From positions 1-64,000 of the IMG/VR virus record IMGVR_UViG_3300035520_001285: a DNA stretch of 64,000 bases; one strand, written 5' to 3'. The stretch comes from a virus. Its lineage: Duplodnaviria > Caudoviricetes. The notes under the pieces are model-generated. The model was not told the DNA's origin, ran no database searches, and saw only the letters and a program-made list of their open reading frames with translations. The stretch's first letter is position 1; every line of letters starts with the position of its first letter. The position numbers and the translations under genes were made by a program. Shown here one piece after another: positions 1 through 43,134 of the stretch.

Positions 1-30
1 TTCTTTATAGTTATAGTTTAAATATACAAA

Positions 31-60
31 TTCCCCGACTACCGTGCGATAATCGGGGAA
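31..60 (-). terminator. Intrinsic terminator after polB
   Basis: On the minus strand, TTCCCCGATTA-loop-TAGTCGGGGAA followed by TTTG, starting about 22 nt after the TAG stop. Confidence 0.75.
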
Positions 61-82
61 TAAGTGCTATGTGCAAAAAGGC

Positions 83-2662
83 CTACCTTAGAATAAAACG
101 TATTCCTGCAAGACAAGTCTTTGTGAGGTTTACTTTATCGTTATAATGTTTAATAAATTCAGCATAGAATTTCACTCTAACTTCTTTTGAGGCATTTAGT
201 ATTAAGCTTGGTACTCTGTCTATAATGCCGTTTGCAACTTTTTTAGCCTGTTGAGAAATCACATCATCAGTAAGATTATTATTAAGTGTTTCTATACTAT
301 TAATATCATATTCTTCAAGTTTAACCGAATCGGTTATTTGAGATGGCTTGATTTTCTCTTTGCTTTCTTTAAACAATGAGTGGTCTTGTGTTACATCAAC
401 ATGACCTTTTGAATTCGATACACGATAAATATCTTTTTCAGTATCATGACGATAGACATAACTCACTTCGCTCCATCCTGAACGGCATAAAACCAAATAC
501 GGCTTTTCTGAATAATCATATTCTCGACCAAGTAAGTCTCTTTCGATATGATTTTCATTAATGATTTCAGAAATTGGTTTGATATCTATCACGTGAGAGT
601 TCTTATACTTTATGAATAGAGGTGTATCACCAAGCACTGAATCACCCACGATAGGTTCATAACCCAATTTCTTGAAATGAGATATCATTAATCTTAATGA
701 TTGTCTGCCCGTGCATGTTGTCTGTTCGGCACACTTTAAGGAACCAAAAGGAAACACATTAGGTGCCCCGTATGAGCCGAAAAAAGAGTTACCTAACACC
801 TTCATTTGCATTTGTTTACCATCTGCTAAGGCATAATCAGCTACTGCTTTGTTGTATTGTGTAATCTCTTCAGGAGTAGCTATTTTATTGATAATCTTCT
901 CTTTAAGACTGTCTACAATCTTGCCAGCGGCTTTTTTCATACCCTTAAATTTCTCACGAGTTGTTAGCACATATTCAAGAAATTTAAGCATTGACCCCAT
1001 AAGGTCATTTGTATCGGAGATGCCCCATGTCAAGATGATTGAAGGGTAAAGTGAATTGTAGTCTAATTTGATTACATTAGGGGCGTAGCCTGTTTGAAGT
1101 AAGCGAGAAAGGCCGCCTGTAAATGTTTTAGACTCTCCAAACATTGGAACAGCAAGATTGTGTCTATAAGACCATGCTAAAAGTAATGCTTTCCATTGGC
1201 CTGCCGTACCCATTGTTGTACATTTTTTATAAGGCACGGGAAGCATTTTACAGATAAGGAAGTTAGTTGAATTAAACTTCCATTCAACTCTATCACCTTC
1301 CCAAATATCATCAAGAAGATACCGTTCAACAATATATCGGCCACTTACAAGTTGATAGCCATCAAGAAGAGCATTTCTTGAACGCATTTTGAATGGCCCA
1401 TCTCCTTGTTTACTTTTGATTGACTTGATGTATTCATCATACTCTTTATCCGAATCAAACTCCTCACGTGTCTTTACCGAAGAGCCGTTAACAGGGTCGT
1501 AGACATACCAATCACCGTCATTATTATTAAAAGCGTAGTGTTCTTCCAAATCAGTTAAAATGAAATCGATCTTATCACCAGGAGTGTAGACACGATTCTT
1601 TTTAACCATTCCTGAATACTTTGTAGCATACTTCAAGTCAGCTCTTTGCATGTTAGAATCCATTGCTTGAGCACGTCTTACCGCATGAAGAGAATCTGTA
1701 AGGATAGTATTTGGAACTAAAGTTTGATTAAATTCTTCAATCTCGCCGCCTAATTTAAGAATGGTAGACCTTGCTTCTTTACGGATTGGTTCACCAAGTA
1801 TTTCTTTTGAAACGTCTTCAAATGTAGTACCTAAACGTTCACAAGCGCCAATGAAGACCTGAATATCGAAGTTTTCAATGTTATGGCCACAAACAATATC
1901 AGGATTAAAAACCTTGATTGCTTTGCAGAATGTTTTTATTAGCCTTAATTCAGATTTATCTTTTTCCTCTTTGGTAGTGCCTTCAAGACTAAAAATTTTT
2001 TGAAAACCATTAGGGTAACCATTGAATGGCCTATTAAAACGGAGGCCAAGCTGTTTAATACGATGTTTTTTGGCATCAAGACCCTCGGTTTCCAAGTCGA
2101 AAGATAGCCTCAATAATTGGTCATAATCATCATAGCCTTTAAAAAAACGTTTACCTGTAGCAATCATGAATTGCTCTTGAGGCGGAACTACTAAGAATTG
2201 TTTTTCTTCCTCTTTTGGCCTTATAATTTCATTGCCATTTTTATCTCTTTTGCCATAAACGGGATTGCCTGCATCTTTGAAGAAAGTAAGAAATCTTTGG
2301 TAAGACATTGGTTTTAAGGCATAAAACATAAAAAGGTAACCGTTGTTGAATTCAGTTCTAATGGTACCATCATATGAAGTATTACTTAAACGTTTAACGC
2401 CAATGTTGTATTTTCGTAAAAGTTGTGAAGTCTCCTTTCTGTTACCCCCACATAATTTATCACAGGCACGATAAGTAGCCCAACAGAACGGATAAAATTT
2501 TTGAGTAGTTGAACATTTCTGATCTTTCTCATTACGATAGAAAATAGTAATGAAATCATCCTTGTAACTATATGTAAGATTGACGATACGTTCCATGGGG
2601 TCATAACCATTCATGAACGCATCAATTTCCTCTTGAGATATTCTTTTTGGAGGATTTTCCAT
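83..2662 (-). CDS. polB: Family B DNA polymerase, N-terminal fragment (exonuclease plus motifs A and B), ending in an N-terminal intein half
   Basis: Exo motifs FDLETEG and GHNIENFDI; Pol motif A LDYNSLYPSII; motif B KVLGNSFFGSYG. Motif C is broken at IVGD by SVLGDTP (intein block A). The ORF ends at TAG with no TD residues or C-terminal polymerase domain. Confidence 0.93.
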   Translation of the reverse strand: MENPPKRISQEEIDAFMNGYDPMERIVNLTYSYKDDFITIFYRNEKDQKCSTTQKFYPFCWATYRACDKLCGGNRKETSQLLRKYNIGVKRLSNTSYDGTIRTEFNNGYLFMFYALKPMSYQRFLTFFKDAGNPVYGKRDKNGNEIIRPKEEEKQFLVVPPQEQFMIATGKRFFKGYDDYDQLLRLSFDLETEGLDAKKHRIKQLGLRFNRPFNGYPNGFQKIFSLEGTTKEEKDKSELRLIKTFCKAIKVFNPDIVCGHNIENFDIQVFIGACERLGTTFEDVSKEILGEPIRKEARSTILKLGGEIEEFNQTLVPNTILTDSLHAVRRAQAMDSNMQRADLKYATKYSGMVKKNRVYTPGDKIDFILTDLEEHYAFNNNDGDWYVYDPVNGSSVKTREEFDSDKEYDEYIKSIKSKQGDGPFKMRSRNALLDGYQLVSGRYIVERYLLDDIWEGDRVEWKFNSTNFLICKMLPVPYKKCTTMGTAGQWKALLLAWSYRHNLAVPMFGESKTFTGGLSRLLQTGYAPNVIKLDYNSLYPSIILTWGISDTNDLMGSMLKFLEYVLTTREKFKGMKKAAGKIVDSLKEKIINKIATPEEITQYNKAVADYALADGKQMQMKVLGNSFFGSYGAPNVFPFGSLKCAEQTTCTGRQSLRLMISHFKKLGYEPIVGDSVLGDTPLFIKYKNSHVIDIKPISEIINENHIERDLLGREYDYSEKPYLVLCRSGWSEVSYVYRHDTEKDIYRVSNSKGHVDVTQDHSLFKESKEKIKPSQITDSVKLEEYDINSIETLNNNLTDDVISQQAKKVANGIIDRVPSLILNASKEVRVKFYAEFIKHYNDKVNLTKTCLAGIRFILR
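86..640 (-). mobile_element. Intein N-terminal half (about 185 aa, Ser1), probable split intein
   Basis: Block A SVLGDTP directly after GD; block B DVTQDHSLF (TxxH); then a remnant resembling an endonuclease linker (RVPSLILNASKEVRVKF). No terminal HN/HQ + S/T/C. Confidence 0.8.
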
Positions 2663-2782
2663 TAGAAATATTTATGTATTAAAGAATTGTGTTATTTAAA
2701 CTCCAACCTTAGAGCCTATAACAATAAGGCATCAGGTTTGCGTTAAATATACATTTTAAGAATTGAAAAAAGGAATCACAAA

Positions 2783-3223
2783 ATGAAATATTTCACTTTA
2801 AAGGAGTTTACAGCATCAAGTACAGCAACAGCCAAAAACATTGATAATACTCCAAATGCAACAGTTACGGCACATATCGAAGAGCTTGTAAATTCTCTAT
2901 TAGATGATTTGAGAGAAGCATGGGGTTCGGCCATTAAAGTTTCTTCTGGTTACAGATGCACAAAATTGAATAATGCAGTTGGTGGAAGTAAAACCTCGGC
3001 TCACACTACAGGATATGCTGCTGATTTAGTGCCCGTAAATGGTAAGATGACTGAATTTAAGACATTTGTTAAAGAATGGTTGAAAGATAAAAAATTCGAC
3101 CAATATATAAATGAATTCAGTGGAAGTACTGAATGGGTCCATATTGGACTTAAGAATATTTCAGGCAAGCAAAGAAAACAGTACCTAATGTATAAGGGCG
3201 GTAAATACAGTACAATCAAATAG
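2783..3223 (+). CDS. Peptidase M15 family (Zn D-Ala-D-Ala peptidase fold), probable endolysin
   Basis: SSGYRC...GGSKTSAHTTGYAAD...WVHIG motif set. Confidence 0.85.
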   Translation: MKYFTLKEFTASSTATAKNIDNTPNATVTAHIEELVNSLLDDLREAWGSAIKVSSGYRCTKLNNAVGGSKTSAHTTGYAADLVPVNGKMTEFKTFVKEWLKDKKFDQYINEFSGSTEWVHIGLKNISGKQRKQYLMYKGGKYSTIK

Positions 3224-7757: not shown

Positions 7758-9769
7758 TTTTCAGCCTCCCTCTTAATAACAGCATTGGAAATAAGTTTTT
7801 TTCTCAGAGAGATATTCCACATATTTTCGTACTGGGTGTCCCTAAATATCTGATAAAACACATGAACATCTCGCTTTTGGGTGACACGATAGATGCGGTC
7901 TTCCATTTGTGAGTTATCAGAATATACATATGATATATTATTAAATACTAAGTACCTTGAATTAACAAGGTTTATACCAGTTGAAGCCGCAACAATGTTA
8001 CCTATAAAAACCATAACACTGTCGTCTTCATAGAAACGCTTAATAGCTTCGTCTTTCTGCTTTAGATTTGTTTTACCATTATAAATAACACATTTATCTC
8101 CGTAGTATTCTTTTAAGGCGTATAATTCTTCATCATAGCAACAAGCTACGACGACTTTTTCACCACGGCTAATAAGCTTATTAACAAGCTCAATGGTGTG
8201 TGGTGTCATTTGATTTGAGATATACTTGCGATATATAGCACCTTCAAGAAGTTCCTTATTTAGTTCTTTGGTTGGGTCTTCAGCAAGTTTAGCTTGTTCA
8301 TACTCATCCCAAAGTCTATCATATTCTTTCTTTTGTTCAGATGTCAAATCATAGAATTTCTCATGAACAGTTTTAGTTACCATATTGTTCATCTCTTCCT
8401 TAATTCTACGTAAATAAATATGAGAAATTCTGCACTTTAATTCGTCGAGATTGCTTGCCCCGTTAGAAATTGTCATCATTCTGCAACTCTTTTTTATTAG
8501 GGTATTGAGCATGTTTTTCTCGGCTTCATTTAATTCATACCAATTCCTTTTACCACAGTTAGAGATGAATGTAGTACTGATTCTATTGCGTTTGTCTTTG
8601 TCTTTTGGATGGCAAATCTCCTTTGCATCGCAGTATCTTTCGAGATAGTACTTTCTATCCTGTGCGATTGGCTCATCTAATAGCTCAAGTAAACAGAGTA
8701 AATTTTGAGGGTTGTTTGTAATAGGTGTGCCCGTAGATAAAAATACACTATGGGGCTTACCTTTTTGTAACAAACTTTTTATGATTTTGTAACGTATAGA
8801 GGTGTTATTTGAAAGGTTATGAGCCTCATCGATTATAATCAATGACTTTTTATTGGTTATAAATTGCAGCATAGGGCTTTCGTTGTAAGCCTTTAAAATA
8901 TTCTCCTTACTACGGGTAACAGGAATCTTATAAAATTCATCCAATATATCGTAGTTAACGATTACATATTTGTTTTCTTTCCATTTGCCTGCTGATTTGG
9001 CTTCTTCTAAAAGTTCATCTTTAGTCTTACCTGAAGTAGATTGTTTATACCCTAAGAATTCTTCCAATTCAGATTTGGTCTTGCTATTAATAGAATCAAT
9101 AATACTAATGTATTTTGTGTCTACATAATAAGACAATTCATTTTTCCAATTGGTTTTTAATGATGCGGGGCAGATAATTATTACGGCATCAAAATTACCT
9201 TCAATAGAGGCCACGGTTAGAGAAGAACTTTTGCCAAGACCCATATCATCGGCCAATATTGAATGTCTTCTTGAAATAAGGAACTTAACGGCTTCTTCTT
9301 GATGAGACATAAGTTCTCGGTCAAACCCTCTTGATTGAGAGAGCTTTGTATAACGTGTAAAATCTATATCTACATTATGGTAATCTTCAGCAAGAAAATC
9401 TTCAATAATACCTCTTTTTGAAAGGAATTCCATTTTTGGAGCAACAGAGGTACGGTATTGAACATAGCAATGCCATGCATATTCAGTTTCGCCTAAATAT
9501 GAGATAATTTTAACTACTTTCGGAATGAAGTCAGTACCCCATTCTTCCTTTTTCTTCTCACCATACCAATCTGCAAGTTTTACAATTTTATTAATTGTTC
9601 TTGGGTTGGTATTGGCATTACGAAGTATGTAATCAACTTGCAAATCCTTAATAGCACTTACATTCTTAAGAGCATATACCTCTTTTTGAAGATACAGTAT
9701 ATAAGGATTTGAACCACGATATTTCTCTAAAATTGAAAAGGCTTCTTCTTGCCTGTTAAATTTTACCAT
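7754..9769 (-). CDS. SNF2-family helicase/ATPase
   Basis: LADDMGLGKS (Walker A), IIDEAH, STGTPITN, GINL...QMEDRIYR motifs. Confidence 0.92.
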   Translation of the reverse strand: MVKFNRQEEAFSILEKYRGSNPYILYLQKEVYALKNVSAIKDLQVDYILRNANTNPRTINKIVKLADWYGEKKKEEWGTDFIPKVVKIISYLGETEYAWHCYVQYRTSVAPKMEFLSKRGIIEDFLAEDYHNVDIDFTRYTKLSQSRGFDRELMSHQEEAVKFLISRRHSILADDMGLGKSSSLTVASIEGNFDAVIIICPASLKTNWKNELSYYVDTKYISIIDSINSKTKSELEEFLGYKQSTSGKTKDELLEEAKSAGKWKENKYVIVNYDILDEFYKIPVTRSKENILKAYNESPMLQFITNKKSLIIIDEAHNLSNNTSIRYKIIKSLLQKGKPHSVFLSTGTPITNNPQNLLCLLELLDEPIAQDRKYYLERYCDAKEICHPKDKDKRNRISTTFISNCGKRNWYELNEAEKNMLNTLIKKSCRMMTISNGASNLDELKCRISHIYLRRIKEEMNNMVTKTVHEKFYDLTSEQKKEYDRLWDEYEQAKLAEDPTKELNKELLEGAIYRKYISNQMTPHTIELVNKLISRGEKVVVACCYDEELYALKEYYGDKCVIYNGKTNLKQKDEAIKRFYEDDSVMVFIGNIVAASTGINLVNSRYLVFNNISYVYSDNSQMEDRIYRVTQKRDVHVFYQIFRDTQYENMWNISLRKKLISNAVIKREAEK

Positions 9770-12736: not shown

Positions 12737-13978
12737 ATGATATTAAGAGCGATTAAAATAAGATTATATCCAAACAAAGCGCAACAAGAGTCTTTAAATA
12801 ATACGCTTGGATGTTATCGTTTTGTTTATAATCAATGTCTTGCTCTTAAAAACCGAACATACGAGGAAACGAAACAAAGCCTTGGGCTTTGTGAGCTTTC
12901 AAAGCATTTTCACGGCGTTTTGTTAAAACAAGAGGAATACTCTTGGTTAAAAGAACAAAACACTAAAGTAATGAAACAAGCAATAAGGCAATTGCTTGTT
13001 GCCTATAAGAATTTCTTTGAAGGCAGGGGCTACCCTAAGTTCAAAAAGAAATCCGATGGGCAATCGGCCTTGTTTCCTTATGACGCTATATCAAAGAGTA
13101 ATACCTTCGAAAAGAAAACGATTTCTTTAACCAAACCTCTGAAAGATATTAAGTTCCGCTGCTCGAACCTTATATTTGAACGGCTCCAAAGATACAAGAA
13201 TAACATCAAGAGCGCAACTTTGTCAAAAACCAAGACAAACAAGTACTTCCTATCGGTTCTTGTTGAAATGGATAAAGCGGAGCTTATCCGCTTTCAACAT
13301 ACCAACCGAAAGGTTGGTATAGACCTCGGAGTTAAAGATTTTGTTATAACTTCAGATGGAGAAGTGTTTGAAAACAAACACTTCAACAAAGTTAAAAAAG
13401 GTAAGATAGCAAGGCTACAAAAGCGACTTTCCAAAAAGCAGAAAGGTTCTCACAATCGTGAGAAGGTAAGGCTTAGACTTGCCAAAGCCTATGAAAAAGC
13501 GACTAATCGTAGAATCGACTACTTGCATAAGATAGTTAATTCATTGTTGACTGATTACGATTACGTTTTCATGGAAAACCTTAATGTAAATGGAATGCTT
13601 AAGAACCATAAGATAGCTTATGCTATTCAAGAGCTTGGATTGTATTCATTTAAGGCTTTACTGAAAGGCAAAGCCTTAATGAATAACAAGCTTGTTATCG
13701 AAGTGGACAGATTCTATCCGTCAAGTCAGCTTTGCCATCATTGTGGTTGCAGGTATAAAGGCCTGCGTTTATCCGAAAGGCAATGGCATTGCCTGCAATG
13801 CGGCAACGACCTTGACAGGGATAAAAACGCAGCTATCAATATCTTGAACGAAGGCCAAAGAATAATAGGCAGCCGTACTGCCGAATTTACACTTGTGGAC
13901 TATCCAACCATGGATGAACGCTCTGATTATCAGAGCCTAAAAAGTGGTGATAGGTTAAAGCAAGAAGCAAAATCATAA
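12737..13978 (+). CDS. tnpB: TnpB RNA-guided endonuclease
   Basis: N-terminal HTH RAIKIRLYPN; RuvC-I GIDLGVKDF; RuvC-II FMENLNVNGM; Zn finger CHHCG...CLQCG; RuvC-III DRDKNAAINI. Confidence 0.95.
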   Translation: MILRAIKIRLYPNKAQQESLNNTLGCYRFVYNQCLALKNRTYEETKQSLGLCELSKHFHGVLLKQEEYSWLKEQNTKVMKQAIRQLLVAYKNFFEGRGYPKFKKKSDGQSALFPYDAISKSNTFEKKTISLTKPLKDIKFRCSNLIFERLQRYKNNIKSATLSKTKTNKYFLSVLVEMDKAELIRFQHTNRKVGIDLGVKDFVITSDGEVFENKHFNKVKKGKIARLQKRLSKKQKGSHNREKVRLRLAKAYEKATNRRIDYLHKIVNSLLTDYDYVFMENLNVNGMLKNHKIAYAIQELGLYSFKALLKGKALMNNKLVIEVDRFYPSSQLCHHCGCRYKGLRLSERQWHCLQCGNDLDRDKNAAINILNEGQRIIGSRTAEFTLVDYPTMDERSDYQSLKSGDRLKQEAKS

Positions 13979-14002
13979 ATTTTATTAGAATTTTGTATAC
14001 GG
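13860..14002 (+). ncRNA. Putative TnpB omega/reRNA scaffold
   Basis: Hairpins GGCAG-CCGTA-CTGCC and GCTCTGAT-T-ATCAGAGC, plus CTATC/GATAG pairing, overlap the tnpB 3' end as is known for TnpB reRNAs. Confidence 0.55.
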
Positions 14003-14113
14003 TAAATCCAAATGTAATTCACAATAAAGAAGACTTATTAAAAAAATATGGGTTGAATGAGAAGGAATTGCACGATAATATCGTAAAGATATATAGTGAG
14101 TACAATTAAGATG

Positions 14114-14143
14114 AGGCTACTAAAAACAGTAGCCTTTTATTTT
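14114..14143 (+). terminator. Intrinsic terminator
   Basis: AGGCTACT-AAAAAC-AGTAGCCT followed by T-rich sequence. Confidence 0.7.
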
Positions 14144-14223: not shown

Positions 14224-17200
14224 ATGGGAAAAATCAGAGGAACACACTCAAGCCCTGGTGTTTATACCGAAATTACCGATTTGAATTATGCGGCTAAAAG
14301 TTTAGGTATTACGACCCTTGGCCTTGTAGGTGAAACCAAAAAAGGCCCCGCTTTTGAACCTATTGCTATCTCCAATTGGAGTGAATTCAAAGATTACTTC
14401 GGAGATGTGAGTGCAGAAAAGTTTAAGGATAGCCAGTACCCTAAATATGAGTTGCCTTACATCGCAAAATCATATCTTTCGGCATCTGACCAACTTTATG
14501 TATGCCGTGTTCTCGGTCTTAGCGGTTATAACGCAGGCCCTGCTTTTTTAATTACGGCCCAAAAAGAAGACGACGATACTAAGAAATATGTTGTAGGCGT
14601 TCTCAGGGCAAGAGGTCACTATGACAAATATGCTAAGCATGGTGATATCTGTAATGGTGGTTATACAACATATGACACTCTTTCGTTTGATTGCGATACT
14701 GTAAAAATCACCCCCTATACTAGTGTATATATAATCACTCAATGCGAAACAAGCGTTTCAGGTGAGACTGCTGATAGCGTCGATATTACTCAATACAATA
14801 TGGGCCAATTTACCATTGAGGCATACAAAGATGGTGAGTTGGTTGGTAAGTACCCTGTGTCATTAAATGCAGGTTCTAAAGATTATATCTATAACGTACT
14901 CGGTAGCACTCCTACCGAAGGTTCTGCTGCCGTATTTGTGGAAGAACTTTATGATGTACGTCTTAATGAACTCATCGCCAATGGTACTGTTGATATAATT
15001 TCAAGTGGTACCGTTGCTATGGGTCGTGACGTTAGTCTTAATGCTGTTCATAATCCTGTAAGTGATTTTGCCGAACTTCCATATCACAAGTTGACTAAGA
15101 AAAATCTTGGTTTGACATATCTTTGTGTGTCAGGTGGCTCTGAAGACTTGATGTATATGAAGAACGACGGTGATGGTTCAATTAACCCCGAATCAAGACT
15201 TTATTCAATGGAACGTGGTGGCCTATACACTGTTGCTTCTTATGTGACAAGTGCAGGTACTAAGTCTTATTGCTACATGAATCTTGTAAATGATAACGGC
15301 AATAGTCTTAAAATTGGCAAAGAAGTTGTTACAAGCGGTAATACTGCAACCTCAAGTGTCGATGTAGTTAAGGTACTTGCTTACGATACCCTTTTCCAAC
15401 TTGATGATGGTGGTAACGTAATCCCTACAACCAACATTAGTGATTATCATGAACAATTCCGTTGCGCTTCAACCCCTTGGATTGTATCTGAACTGAAGGG
15501 CGATGGCGAGAATATTGAAGTTAAGAAACTTTTCCGTTTCCATACCATTACTGATGGTACAGGTGCTAATTCTCAAATTAAGATTTCTATCGCCAATATT
15601 GAACCCAACGAAGGTACATTCGATGTATTAATTCGTGACTTTAACGATAGTGACGCATCTCCCTCTATTCTCGAACAATATAAGAATGTGAATCTTATCC
15701 CTGGCAATTCAAAATATCTCGGTCTTAAGATTGGTACTCTTGATGGTTCTTATGAAACAGTCTCTAAGTATGTACTTGTTGAAATCATTGAAAATGACAT
15801 GACACAAAATTGCGTACCTTGCGGTTTCTTAGGCTACCCTGTTCGTGATTATTCAATGATTGGTAACAATATTGTTGCGCCTACATTCACATACAATACT
15901 TCTTATAATGAAGATATTAAGGATAAACGTCAATACTTCGGTATGGGCGATATTGATGGCGTAAGCTCAGTAGACGTTGATATGCTTTATTACAAGGGTA
16001 AGAACGCTTATACTGAAGACTATCGTTACGGTTATACTCATCCTTTCCACCTCGACTCTACTCTTAACAAAACAATTCTTGATGACCTCAAAAATGGTGG
16101 CCATCCTGTAACTGTTACGGTAGATGGCGACCAAGACACTGCAAGCCTTGTTTGGGACACCGTTTCACCTGATTATGACCCGACTGAATTCGAGGGTGCT
16201 CCTGTGATTGGCGATGAAACCGACATGGAAGGTACTCTTTATGAAAAGGTAGCTTTACGTAAGTTTACTGTTTATCCTTGTGGTGGTTTTGATGGTTGGG
16301 ATATTTACCGTGGTAGTCGTACAAATACTGATGAATTCAAGGCATCTAAGTACAAAGGTACTATCTCCAATGGCATGGGTGCTACATTCTCCAAAATTTC
16401 AAATGCAGATACCCTCGCTTTGGATGCAGGTGCAATCACGTCTGATTACTATGCATATTTAGCAGGTATTAATCAATTTGAAATCCCTGAAAGAACTGTT
16501 ATCAACTTGTTTGCAACGCCTGGCATTGACTACGTAAACAATACTTTACTTAGTAATGATGCCCTTGACATGATTGAGGAAAAACGTGGTGATACATTCT
16601 ATGTCATGACTACACCCGATAAGCCTTGGGGTGCTTCAGATGCCCGTGATGAGATGTATAGCTCTGCTGATGCTGCTGAAAACCTTGCAGATACAGGCAT
16701 TGATACCATCTATGCTTCAACTTACTATCCTTGGATTAAGTATTATGATAAAACTAATTCAATTTACGTAAATCTTCCTGCTACCAAGGACGTGTTAAGA
16801 AACTTAGCCAACATTGATAACAAGAAATATCCATGGTATGCTCCCGCTGGTATTGAACGTGGTGATGTTGAATGTACTAAGATGCACTTCTTTGCTAAAC
16901 TTGAAGATGAAGATACGCTTTATGATGCTAATATCAACCCGTTGAAAACATTCTCCGAAGATGGTGTTAAGGTTTGGGGTAACAAGACAATGACACAACG
17001 TGATTCCCCACTCAATCGAATTAATACTGTTCGTTTGATGTTGTATCTGCGTAAACTTGTCGTGGCTGCATCTCGTAAGTTAGTATTTGAACCGAATGAT
17101 ACTACGCTTAAAACTCAACTTGAAGGTATCATCAATCCTATCTTAGCTCAAATCAAGAGTGACAGAGGCCTTACCGACTATCGTGTTGTGGTTTCACAAA

Positions 17201-19087: not shown

Positions 19088-20542
19088 ATGGCAAAGAACA
19101 ACAATCCTCAAAACGTAGGGGAAGAAGACATTCAGAAGGGGCTTGAAAGATTAAGAAATTCATACATAATGTATGAAAAAACTAAAGCCGAAACAATTGA
19201 ACAACGTACTAATGCCGTTGATAAAAATGGCAATAAGAAATACTCGCCTTCAAGCCTTAAAGATACTTTGGCATTAATTGAAACGATGCAGCAAGATATT
19301 ATGACCCAATACATTCAACTTGGTGGTGATAAAGCCGACCTTGAAAATTTGAGTCCTAAAAAGAAAACTCAAAACCGAAAGAAACTTTTTGAACAAATTC
19401 TTGCAAGAGAAAAAAGCCAAGCCGCTATTAATATGGAAGAACAAATAAATAACGAGCCTGTAATTGAAGAAGGTGATATTGCGCCAAGCCCGACATATAC
19501 CATGGAAGATTTACCTAACTATGAGAGAAAAGAGGAAGAAGTAACTCCTGATGAATTCAAAGCTAAAGAAAACATTGAAAAGCCTGAAATCGTAACCGTT
19601 AATGAAGAACCTCAACATACGCCATCCGTAGGACTTGACCCAACAAAGGCTACATTTAACAGCGTAAAATATGATGTGATACCCCTTCCCTCAAACGGTG
19701 AGTGTTACAAGAATAAAATGACTAAAATTCCCGTGGCTTATCTTACCGCTTATGATGAAAATTTGATTGTATCACCTAACCTTTATAAAGACGGTACTTT
19801 CTTGGATTATATCTTAAAGAGTAAAATTATCACCAATGAAATCGAAGCCGATGATTTACTCCCTGGTGATAGGGACGCAATTATTCTTTGGCTTAGAGCA
19901 AGTGGTTATGGCCCCGAATTTCCTGTAACCGCAACTGATAATGCAACAGGTGAAAAGTTTGATGCTATTGTTGACCTTACTAAACTCAAATACAAAAAGT
20001 TTAATCTTAAAGCCGATAGAAATGGCTACTTTGGTTTTGAATTGCCGTTTAGTAAAGACAAAATCAAATTTAAATTCTTAACCTATAAAGACACAAAGGT
20101 CCTTGATGAGCTTGATATTGATGAGAACCTTAATATCAAGAAAACTAAATTGGAAGAACTTTATGAAAGATTAGGCGAATATATCAATAATGATACTGAC
20201 ATTAACCGAAGTTTGAAAATCAAACTTTCAGATTCAATGAAGGGTATTAGGGAATATATTGACTCAATTAAGGCTGATGATGACGCATTATTCACCCACT
20301 CGGTAACGAATAAATTGGAGGCATCAATCGTTTCAATTAATGGCATATCTGATAGAAAATATATTAAGCAATATGTCGAATATATGAATGTTAGAGATTC
20401 ATCCGCCTTGAGGAAATTCATTATTGAAAACGAGCCTGGCATCGATTTTAATGTTGAAGTGCAACGCCCTGAGAGTCTGGGAGGTGGCTCAGTGAAGATG
20501 TTTCTCACGCTTGACCAATTTATTTTTCTCACAGTTGCCTGA
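19088..20542 (+). CDS. Baseplate hub/tail assembly chaperone (T4 gp26-like C-terminal domain) with a long acidic N-terminal extension
   Basis: IPLPSNG...VAYLTAYDENL...DLLPGDRDAIILWLRASGYG...IKFKFLT.KD; upstream of the tape measure gene. Confidence 0.65.
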   Translation: MAKNNNPQNVGEEDIQKGLERLRNSYIMYEKTKAETIEQRTNAVDKNGNKKYSPSSLKDTLALIETMQQDIMTQYIQLGGDKADLENLSPKKKTQNRKKLFEQILAREKSQAAINMEEQINNEPVIEEGDIAPSPTYTMEDLPNYERKEEEVTPDEFKAKENIEKPEIVTVNEEPQHTPSVGLDPTKATFNSVKYDVIPLPSNGECYKNKMTKIPVAYLTAYDENLIVSPNLYKDGTFLDYILKSKIITNEIEADDLLPGDRDAIILWLRASGYGPEFPVTATDNATGEKFDAIVDLTKLKYKKFNLKADRNGYFGFELPFSKDKIKFKFLTYKDTKVLDELDIDENLNIKKTKLEELYERLGEYINNDTDINRSLKIKLSDSMKGIREYIDSIKADDDALFTHSVTNKLEASIVSINGISDRKYIKQYVEYMNVRDSSALRKFIIENEPGIDFNVEVQRPESLGGGSVKMFLTLDQFIFLTVA

Positions 20543-40592: not shown

Positions 40593-40629
40593 TCTTAGCC
40601 TTAACTAACACAAAGCGATAAAGAGTATT

Positions 40630-43134
40630 ATGGCTAAGATTCAGAAAAATACTCTTGGCTTCTTGGGCGTTGATTTTCAATATAAGTTAATCAACGCCTT
40701 TATAGAACGGCCAAGTTTCTTTAAAGACCTATTTCCGATTATTGATCAAAATATGTTCACGGAGTCTTATTTGAAGACTATCGTGGGTGTAATGAGAGAA
40801 TACTATTCAAAGCATGATTCAACTGCATCATACGATATTCTTGCAATCAAATTGAATGAACTTGCAAGTACGGATGATGATAAACAATGCTATGATGAGG
40901 CTATTCAAAAACTTCGTGAAGTAACCACTGACGGTATCGACGAAGTTGAAGATATGGCCGAAAAATTCTTCAAACAGCAAAATTGGATTAGAATTGCCAA
41001 TGAAATCAAACGAGTAGCAGGCGATGGTGATATGTCAAAATACGCCGAATGCGAAAGAATGATTATTGAAGCAAATGCAATCACACGAAAGCATGAAGAT
41101 TCAGGTTCGCCTTTGGATAGTATTGACGAAGACCTTTCAAAAGAAAATATTGTAAGCATTCCTACAGGTATTCCTAAGATTGATGACTGCCTTGGTGGTG
41201 GTCTTGATAAGGGCAAATTAGGCCTTATTATGGCGGCTATGGGTAGTGGTAAAGCACTGCCTAATAGTGAAATCGTTTACACTGTTGATGGACCTAAGAC
41301 AATGGGAGAAATCAACGTTGGTGATATGGTTTTAGGGCGTGATGGTAATGGCCATACCGTTATTGGCAAATATCCCCAAGGTGTACGTGATATTTATGAG
41401 GTTAGATTTAATGACGGTGTTTCTGTGCGTTGTGACAAGGAGCATTTATGGAATGTAAACTCCCGTTATCAACGAAGCACATGGAAAAGAATACCAGGAA
41501 GCCGAAAAACCATACGCAAACCTGACTATTCATTTAAGACACTTACTTTAGGCGAAATAATGAATAAGGGTCTTTATAAAAATGGGAAGCAACATAGTTA
41601 TAACTTCAAAATACCTATGGCCAATCCTGTAGAATTCAACGAAATACCTTTGCGTATAAATCCATATTTAATGGGTTATTTTATTGGGGATGGTTGTTTT
41701 AGTAGAGGTGCTATAACTGTAGGTGAAGAAGATTTAAGTGACGTAGTGCTCCTTTTAACGAATGAAGAATTTAAATTCGGTATTAAGCGCCATAAGGGGC
41801 GTGCTACAAGTATTGATTTTAGAAGTGATTTTAAAAATGAATTAAAGTCATATTACGGAACGCCATGCAAAGCGGAGCATAAATTTATCCATAAGGACTT
41901 TTTATTCAATTCTAAAAAAAATAGAATTGCTATTTTAAATGGTTTAATGGATTCTGACGGAACATGTGGCTTGAATGGAAATTGCTCTATAACAACTAAA
42001 TCAAAGCAGCTAGCTGAAGATGTGAGAACATTAGTTTTGTCTCTTGGTGGATTCGCCTCAATAACAGAGAAGAAACGTGGCTATTTCAATAAAAAATACA
42101 AAGAATACCGAGATTGCGGAATGCATTACGAGGTACACTTTAGTTTGGTTGATGATTCTATTCCCGTTTTCAGACTAAAACGAAAACAGGACAGAGTTAG
42201 GTATAGAAAATTCTATGCCACAGCACGATTCATAAAAAGTATTGAGCCATGTGGCCAAGAAGAAGCTAGTTGTATAAAAGTTGATGCTGAGGATGAATTA
42301 TTCTTAACTAAGGATTTCATTGTAACCCACAACACATCTCTTACAACTGCATTCTCCGCTGCAGCCGCAACTATAAAATCACAGCAGAATGATTATCAGG
42401 GTTATAAGGTGTTGCATATAGTTTTTGAGGACACTAAGCGTGATATCAATCGTAAGTACTTTGGCCGATTAACTCAGATTGAAACCAAAGACCTCAATAA
42501 GGATGACGAAACAACCGAAAGGGCAAGGGAACTCCTTAAAAATCACAAAGATTTCGATTTGATTAAAAACAATATCAAAATCCTTCACCTTAATACAGGT
42601 GAAAAAACCGCAAGCGACATTGTGCGAATAGGAAAGAAATTTATCAATGAAGGCTTTAAGCCTGATATGATTGTTATTGACTACTTCGAGTGTGTTGCTC
42701 CCGAAAAGGGTAGTGGTAATCAACAAAAATGGGACCAAGAAACCAAGACAATGCGTGTTTTTGAAAATGGTGCTAAAGAGTTGAATGTTGCCATGTGGAT
42801 ACCTTCACAAGGTAATCGTGGTTCGGTTTCCTCTGAATTGATTACAATGGACCAAGGTAGCGGTTCTATTGGCAAACAACAGGTCGCTCAGGTAGTAATG
42901 AGTATTACCCGCTCCCTCAATGATATTGATAACAAACAAGCAACAATTGCTATCCTTAAAAACCGTAGCGGCGCTGCAGGTTTGACACTCAATGGCATAT
43001 CATTTAATAACGGCACTTGCACGATTAATTGCGATAACACTGTTGATTTCAATAGCATTGATGACTACAATGAATTTGCGATGAACGTTGAAGATAATAT
43101 CCGAAAGGATTTAACTAAAGGCCTTAGAGGTTAA
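40630..43134 (+). CDS. dnaB: Replicative DnaB/gp41-like helicase containing an intein
   Basis: IPTGIPKIDDCLGGG; P-loop AAMGSGK|intein|TSLTT; IVFED; MIVIDY; SQGNR; ILKNRSG. Confidence 0.92.
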   Translation: MAKIQKNTLGFLGVDFQYKLINAFIERPSFFKDLFPIIDQNMFTESYLKTIVGVMREYYSKHDSTASYDILAIKLNELASTDDDKQCYDEAIQKLREVTTDGIDEVEDMAEKFFKQQNWIRIANEIKRVAGDGDMSKYAECERMIIEANAITRKHEDSGSPLDSIDEDLSKENIVSIPTGIPKIDDCLGGGLDKGKLGLIMAAMGSGKALPNSEIVYTVDGPKTMGEINVGDMVLGRDGNGHTVIGKYPQGVRDIYEVRFNDGVSVRCDKEHLWNVNSRYQRSTWKRIPGSRKTIRKPDYSFKTLTLGEIMNKGLYKNGKQHSYNFKIPMANPVEFNEIPLRINPYLMGYFIGDGCFSRGAITVGEEDLSDVVLLLTNEEFKFGIKRHKGRATSIDFRSDFKNELKSYYGTPCKAEHKFIHKDFLFNSKKNRIAILNGLMDSDGTCGLNGNCSITTKSKQLAEDVRTLVLSLGGFASITEKKRGYFNKKYKEYRDCGMHYEVHFSLVDDSIPVFRLKRKQDRVRYRKFYATARFIKSIEPCGQEEASCIKVDAEDELFLTKDFIVTHNTSLTTAFSAAAATIKSQQNDYQGYKVLHIVFEDTKRDINRKYFGRLTQIETKDLNKDDETTERARELLKNHKDFDLIKNNIKILHLNTGEKTASDIVRIGKKFINEGFKPDMIVIDYFECVAPEKGSGNQQKWDQETKTMRVFENGAKELNVAMWIPSQGNRGSVSSELITMDQGSGSIGKQQVAQVVMSITRSLNDIDNKQATIAILKNRSGAAGLTLNGISFNNGTCTINCDNTVDFNSIDDYNEFAMNVEDNIRKDLTKGLRG
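41254..42333 (+). mobile_element. Class 3 intein (360 aa) with LAGLIDADG homing endonuclease
   Basis: Starts with Ala (ALPNSE); block B CDKEHLW; block F ASCIKV; block G FIVTHN followed by Thr; endonuclease motifs LMGYFIGDG and LNGLMDSDG. Confidence 0.9.

Follow-up and report, generated by a model that had tools for sequence, protein, structure and literature searches.

The polymerase gene stops inside an intein

The first gene of the phage DNA analysed here, polB-N, very probably encodes the N-terminal part of a family B replicative polymerase whose gene is naturally split ("fractured"). The phage is an uncultured jumbo phage, and protein trans-splicing would join the two halves of the enzyme. 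The window (the whole stretch analysed) comprises bases 1-64,000 of the 86,231-bp linear viral fragment IMGVR_UViG_3300035520_001285, for which the CheckV completeness is 24%. polB-N is an open reading frame (ORF) of 859 residues on the minus strand (83..2662). Because the window begins at base 1 of this incomplete contig, the DNA runs out 82 nt beyond the polB-N stop codon.

The ORF matched PF03104 and PF00136 above the Pfam cut-offs and the PHROGs DNA polymerase family phrog_262 (E 2e-44), and it carries the family B hallmark motifs A (DYNSLYPS) and B (KVLGNSFFG). The polymerase portion closes at ...EPIVGD, whose last two residues, GD (bases 641-646), open catalytic motif C. A family B polymerase would be expected to have the whole of motif C (DTD) and a thumb in one polypeptide, but this ORF has GD only and lacks the thumb. 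The N-extein (641..2662, minus strand, 674 residues) consists of the exonuclease domain and the palm up to the GD of motif C, and in intein-less relatives TDGFNF follows directly after residue 674.

As the preliminary description of this DNA had stated, the protein runs on for about 185 residues beyond IVGD and stops without an HN plus nucleophile. Directly after GD stands Ser675, the Ser1 of an intein (bases 638-640), from which 185 residues lead to the TAG stop (83..85). Ser1 was invariant in alignments of 26 full proteins and 12 tails, as were D5-T6-P7 of block A (SVLGDTP, 620-640) and T84 and H87 of block B (TxxH, here TQDH within VTQDH, 380-391). The NX motif reads RH (R64-H65 in YVYRH, 446-451), His65 being invariant and Arg64 present in at least 90% of the relatives. 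This RH form of the NX motif, in which His is preceded by Arg or Lys, has been defined as specific to Ser1 inteins (PMC10189870).

An AlphaFold2 model of the tail had a mean predicted local distance difference test score (pLDDT) of 82, with a beta-rich half (residues 1-112) followed by four helices (125-184). The predicted fold is that of a Hint domain, of which only the N-half can occur in the polB-N protein. When the model was compared with known structures by VIA-align, the 37 best matches were all inteins or Hint domains (Z 6.3-11.2); mini-inteins aligned with Z 9-10.6 and a root-mean-square deviation (rmsd) of 1.8-2.4 over about 100-110 residues within intein residues 1-112. The best Foldseek match was the Nanoarchaeum NeqN/NeqC complex. 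At the sequence level, hhalign matched the family of N-terminal intein fragments (IntN) to which the window tail belongs to contiguous inteins at the same site with 99.9% probability (E 2e-35) over the first ~110 intein residues, and a profile of the family tails had as its best match among PDB sequences the Aes123 PolB1 split intein (PDB 9hth, E 2.9e-5), around block B. Taken together, the alignments and the model support assignment of the polB-N tail as the N-fragment of a class 1 Ser1 (oxyester-type) intein, with its putative splicing half at 305..640 (minus strand, intein residues 1-112). The earlier reading of the tail as a Ser1 intein N-half with blocks A and B is thereby strengthened, both blocks being invariant or nearly so in relatives.

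The stop codon is conserved and the genetic code is standard

A search of 5.8 billion proteins gave homologues of 54-69% identity. Nearly all of the 120 best matches listed covered 96-100% of the query (two covered 53%), and several lay on contigs of 250-390 kb. In every one of the 120, GD leads into S[VF]xxDTP; a block B, a tail 179-211 residues long and a terminal ...SKTCLAGLxYLK... just before the stop were likewise present throughout. Since the same terminal motif and stop recur in all 120, neither an assembly error nor a recent pseudogene can explain the polB-N stop, which by this sequence comparison is a natural one; the assembly error or frameshift against which the preliminary description had cautioned was not borne out. 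Such polB N-halves should not be annotated as pseudogenes.

The position of the TAG codon (83..85, minus strand) is conserved across the family. In 50 ORFs of at least 150 residues, which cover 88.5% of the contig, the stops were 37 TAA, 9 TGA and 4 TAG; the genetic code of this phage is standard and TAG is an ordinary stop. Recoding of TAG was rejected on this ground and because a second stop follows. Translation past TAG yields 23 codons and then TAA, crossing a hairpin and a conserved box, and the stretch is therefore non-coding, in agreement with the earlier remark that the read-through sequence resembles neither intein nor polymerase. A group I intron with an in-frame ORF was also rejected, given that bases 1-3000 contained no match to any Rfam family, group I introns included, and that the tail has a predicted Hint fold.

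In related phages the missing half is a separate gene

We retrieved 116 related viral loci and classified them by tblastn; a query with a single protein retrieved none and an alignment query was needed. Loci are given below by L numbers where they must be told apart. The split state seen in the window was found in 30 distinct sequences, in which a gene encoding the C-terminal intein fragment (IntC) fused to the C-extein lies 0.1-7.6 kb downstream of polB-N. In the 326-kb relative L003, for example, two endonuclease-like genes separate polB-N from a 532-residue ORF reading ...FVCHN|TDGFNFELP.... A further 46 distinct sequences lacked the intein and joined GD in frame to TDGFNF, which fixes the insertion site, and 10-11 distinct sequences carried a contiguous intein at the same site. 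In one of these, L044, the intein lies within a single open frame of 1425 residues with PF14890 and LAGLIDADG_3 matches, and it is the first 110 residues of this intein that aligned with the split IntN at E 2e-35. The aligned IntC segments of relatives are 33-36 residues long, and VYDIS (within ...VYDISxDGT...[S/H]N), the terminal Asn, Thr+1 and DGFNF are invariant.

The number of genes between the halves of split loci is zero (L104, L107 and L110), one (most loci) or several. The intervening genes matched phrog_559 and phrog_3339 (HNH or homing endonuclease) with E values of 1e-95 to 1e-139. They encode DUF723 zinc-ribbon repeats, some with a Mom-like C-terminal region, and a single locus can hold more than one DUF723 endonuclease gene. 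A search of PDB sequences with a relative's endonuclease gave no real match, and the label Vsr-like for these enzymes hence rests on a D-G-x-F-W-H motif seen by eye.

On a tree of N-exteins, split and empty alleles interleave at shallow depth (L010 with L025, L013 with L028-L031, L034 with L047), which suggests recurrent gain or loss of an intein-endonuclease cassette. The window groups with the split loci L003 and L006 and next with the empty locus L040.

The split gene is the only replicase detected

Each of four relatives with a completeness rating of 100% (349-393 kb; terminal repeats in two of them) contains a single PolB locus, found in the truncated N-half ORF, and no PolA. The 86 kb available for the window phage encode no second PolB, no PolA and no PolIII-alpha. 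Because the complete relatives have one PolB locus and no PolA, the split gene is the only detectable replicase in these phages, and the second intact polymerase that would have spoken against a split enzyme was found neither in the 86 kb nor, as another PolB or a PolA, in the four complete relatives. Phages of this family (350-390 kb) would thus have to build their only detectable replicative polymerase from two gene products that meet at the catalytic motif, so that genome replication would hinge on protein trans-splicing.

Inteins were seen in other genes of these phages. At window positions 40609-43131 (plus strand) an 841-residue DnaB-like helicase (PF03796, residues 583-791) is interrupted by a contiguous intein that has LAGLIDADG_3 at residues 440-497 and a weak Hom_end_hint match; at least two replication genes of this phage are therefore invaded by inteins. 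A SNF2-family helicase gene upstream of polB in L006 (2470-5553) and L010 (4184-7315) also has a LAGLIDADG_3 match, presumably another intein.

Proposed assembly and alternative explanations

By analogy with relatives, the partner gene would lie just beyond the contig end, after one or two free-standing homing-endonuclease genes, and would encode an IntC of 34-36 residues with [S/H]N at its end, continued in the same protein by TDGFNF and a thumb region of ~480 residues. The two genes would be translated separately, the hairpin behind polB-N ending its transcription, and IntN and IntC would associate to complete a single Hint fold. An oxyester formed at Ser1 would be attacked by Thr+1, the terminal Asn would cyclise, and the joined halves would give a PolB of ~1,155 residues with an intact motif C, GDTDG. 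The preliminary description had proposed a split PolB with a separate C-half gene. The IntN, the conserved truncation and the separate IntC-TDG-thumb ORF in 30 related loci support that proposal, whereas for this phage we infer both the C-half, placed beyond the contig end, and the splicing chemistry.

Several observations weigh against this reading. The window tail alone gave no meaningful match in Pfam, PHROGs or PDB sequences. The IntC-PolB-C ORF sought in this phage's own DNA was not found within the 86 kb of the 24%-complete contig, where PF00136 matched the N-half only and tblastn with a relative's PolB-C and endonucleases gave nothing; no overlapping contig was recovered when metagenome and viral contigs were scanned for exact matches to window bases 80-110 and 1-30. 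The partner must consequently be deduced from relatives that are at most 69% identical. Moreover, most IntC relatives have Ser instead of His before the terminal Asn, and one ends in Gln. Two related loci have the same gene broken without an intein. In L036 (9980-15275) the break lies nine residues after GD-TDG and leaves motif C whole (GDTDGFNFKLP); the N-gene continues for ~70 unrelated residues and is followed by a DUF723-type endonuclease gene and a C-gene that opens with ~25 unrelated residues. In L052 (~8539-8691) the gene is broken ~8 residues before GD.

These intein-less breaks, which indicate that a non-covalent polymerase may be viable, together with the loss of the penultimate His from most IntC copies, feed the main rival explanation: that the two polymerase pieces assemble without a peptide bond, the intein halves serving only as docking domains. 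Precedents exist in the fragmented NrdA of phage Aeh1 and gp43A/B of some T4-like phages, both cited in PMC2677866. We nevertheless regard such non-covalent assembly as improbable, given that the residues needed for splicing (Ser1, RH, TxxH, the terminal Asn and Thr+1) are invariant across divergent members, that the catalytic GD|TDG motif is itself the site of the break, and that the ratio of nonsynonymous to synonymous substitution rates (dN/dS) in the Hint half is about 0.07-0.2 by a rough Nei-Gojobori estimate in which dS is saturated in most pairs. The stop lies just 82 nt from the contig end, in the region where assemblies are least reliable, which would fit a pseudogene or an assembly or sequencing artefact in which a false stop or frameshift interrupts a contiguous intein gene. 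The same stop after KTCLAG in all 120 best homologues, which come from many independent assemblies, the terminator-like hairpin and conserved box behind it (as in relatives), the standard genetic code and the lack of a group I intron or other RNA family make this very unlikely. Much the same slight chance attaches to loss of the C-half in a phage replicated by some other polymerase, with polB-N a relic; the contig holds only 24% of the genome and leaves room for such an enzyme, yet the 859-residue frame is intact with its catalytic and intein residues all kept, the 86 kb contain no PolA, PolIII-alpha or second PolB, and the complete relatives rely on the split PolB alone.

Comparison with known split inteins

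The precedents named in the preliminary description, Nanoarchaeum (PDB 5oxx/5oxz) and Aes123 PolB1 (PDB 9hth), are real, and split PolB inteins are already known in phages (MIJ3/PA5oct and Aes123), so the window gene is a further case. A parallel in layout is offered by the Pseudomonas jumbo phages vB_PaeM_MIJ3 and PA5oct, which have a split PolB intein with an HNH gene between the halves (PMC6892783). As in the window family, the PolB gene of a jumbo phage is interrupted at motif C, giving polB-N/IntN and IntC/polB-C, and a free-standing endonuclease gene lies between the two, an arrangement that we confirmed in the MIJ3 record; the intein is of the Ser1 type with blocks A, B, F and G (F and G being seen in the relatives of the window). 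The MIJ3 IntN is weakly homologous to that of the window (33% identity, E 2e-3 to 6e-3). However, its insertion point, GDTD|S, is two codons later than the GD|TDG of the window family and gives Ser rather than Thr at +1; its endonuclease is annotated as HNH versus DUF723-type in the relatives of the window; and its IntN of ~120 residues lacks the 70-residue helical extension, whereas its IntC has ~85 residues compared with 34-36. The two polymerases are too distant to match each other.

Aes123 PolB1 of T4-like Aeromonas phages is a naturally split, cysteine-less intein with an IntN of 120 residues and an IntC of 39 (PMC11923092; PDB 9hth). It shares with the window a split Ser1 intein in a phage PolB, and the structures match with Z 9.1 and rmsd 2.4 over 104 residues. 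It lacks a helical extension, the window IntN contains the non-catalytic cysteines C52 and C177, and both the polymerase and the phage group differ. The PolB mini-intein of Salicola phage SCTP-2 is inserted at exactly this point (...IIYGD|SVTHDT...) and its N-half, with YIYRH and VTEDHS, is homologous, but it is a contiguous cis-splicing intein within a single ORF of 1089 residues. In Nanoarchaeum equitans (5oxx/5oxz) a family B polymerase is likewise made from two genes by trans-splicing (VIA-align Z 6.6-6.9), although the system is archaeal and thermophilic, its genes are unlinked, no endonuclease gene is present and the IntN is far shorter. Like the window intein, PolB16 OarG, found in a sheep gut metagenome (PMC10189870), is of the split Ser1 type, interrupts motif C of a PolB and has the RH NX motif (VIA-align Z 7.6), but it is split after 15 residues (IntN of 15 and IntC of 168 residues), is inserted after GDTD and has Ser at +1.

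Fractured genes were described by Dassa et al. in 2009 (PMC2677866) as phage DNA-metabolism genes in two ORFs that carry split-intein halves, with a free-standing endonuclease and a hairpin between. The stages of their evolutionary model (cis intein, fractured gene, loss of the endonuclease and uncoupling of the halves) all occur in the family of the window. When the paper was searched as text, "PolB" did not occur, and B-type polymerases came up in introductory passages only. The endonucleases of the window family carry DUF723 zinc-ribbon repeats and a Mom-like C-terminal region, and their link to the Vsr-like family of the paper is the D-G-x-F-W-H motif recognised by eye. Four features are distinctive here: an IntN of 185 residues whose helical extension is conserved, endonucleases of the DUF723 type, the family's size and the occurrence of all evolutionary stages together. 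Close relatives have, side by side, empty alleles, cis inteins, split genes with one or several endonuclease genes, split genes without an endonuclease, and halves separated by unrelated genes, which makes the family a natural test bed for the origin and movement of split inteins. Split inteins whose catalysis involves no cysteine (Ser1/Thr+1) are rare and in demand as tools for protein ligation, and this family offers dozens of natural variants.

The helical extension of IntN

Intein residues 113-185 (86..304, minus strand), which end in ...KTCLAGIRFILR, form four helices in the AlphaFold2 model with pLDDT of about 90. The length of this extension and its K-T-x-x-A-G end motif are kept in 120 of the 120 best homologues. 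By the same rough estimate, again with dS saturated in most pairs, dN/dS was ~0.1-0.6 for the extension and ~0.07-0.2 for the Hint half. The preliminary description had taken part of the tail for an endonuclease-linker remnant. A structural alignment does cover the tail: the whole model (intein residues 1-185) aligned with the endonuclease-bearing inteins PI-TkoII, TliVMA and PI-PfuI over 177-181 residues with Z 10.4-11.2, scores hardly above those of Hint-only matches, and rmsd 3.7-4.8. No sequence homology between the extension and the endonuclease part of the cis inteins was detected by hhalign, the alignment stopping at residue 112, so the earlier proposal receives little backing.

A more speculative idea, which we consider possible but rather doubtful, is that the ~70-residue extension is a working module and not a dead endonuclease relic; it might, for example, help the long N-precursor to stay in solution, provide a docking site for the neighbouring endonuclease or act as a gate for splicing. 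The window IntN would then represent a structurally new type of natural split intein, in an intein-endonuclease cassette that is currently mobile among closely related jumbo phages. If so, one gene family would hold every stage of a fractured gene and could be used to test that pathway.

Signals downstream of the stop

Just beyond the TAG codon the minus strand contains a hairpin (61..30) with a stem of 14 pairs, G-T pairs allowed and 6 of them G-C, a loop of 4 and then a T-rich tail, TTGTATATTT; its calculated energy is -24.1 kcal/mol. This is the structure given earlier as an 11-bp hairpin at 31-60. A strong hairpin right after the polB-N stop is also present in L003, L006 and L020, and by its sequence the window hairpin is terminator-like.

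The hairpin is followed by the box TTGTATATTTA (29..19, minus strand). Upstream of the ATG of the endonuclease gene, the same 11-mer occurs in L006, L010 and L019, and L003 has a nearly identical sequence there. With 8 matches in the window compared with 6.75 expected, the box is not enriched, and a promoter role is thus proposed from its position and conservation. It probably drives the next gene, beyond the contig end. The promoter-like box noted previously is present, and its position in these relatives is the homologous one. No sigma-70-type promoter was listed in bases 1-82. In L006, the closest relative, the gene order is M15 peptidase, polB-N, DUF723 endonuclease, and from this synteny the next gene of the window phage is probably a DUF723-type endonuclease. 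Dassa et al. (PMC2677866) describe hairpins and control elements brought in together with the endonuclease gene. A copy of the box with one mismatch, ATGTATATTTA, lies at window positions 2744-2754 (minus strand), ~82 nt upstream of the polB-N start codon, and may be the promoter element of polB-N itself.

Additional features of the C-half genes in relatives

In 8 of the ~30 distinct split loci a stop codon stands right after the Gly codon of TDG at the IntC/C-extein junction, followed by 0-6 nt; in seven of the eight a second Gly codon is then found just before F(N/D)F. The sites are L008 (~14350-14370), L010 (~14610-14630), L016 (~20140-20160), L097, L101, L109, L110 and L122, and examples read GGT TAG GT TTC, GGC TGA AT GGT TTT and GGC TGA ATA GGC TTC. 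The inserts are 4, 5, 6, 8, 8, 8, 9 and 9 nt long, and the C-extein frame is open and conserved. Because matching take-off and landing codons lie beside a stop, these sequences suggest a short ribosomal hop that would yield exactly TDGFNF. In L010 (GGC TAG C TTT) the landing codon is imperfect, AGC, and in L122 an in-frame ATG is also present at the site. The intein tree is poorly resolved as to whether the Gly-stop-Gly loci form one cassette lineage.

The PolB-C gene of L019 contains a group I intron (RF00028, 70.6 bits) at 13827-14131, ~75 codons past the splice junction. Gaps of 300-335 nt occur at the same position in L010 (14836-15149), L018 (14574-14909) and L042 (16371-16677); none had an Rfam match at the gathering score.

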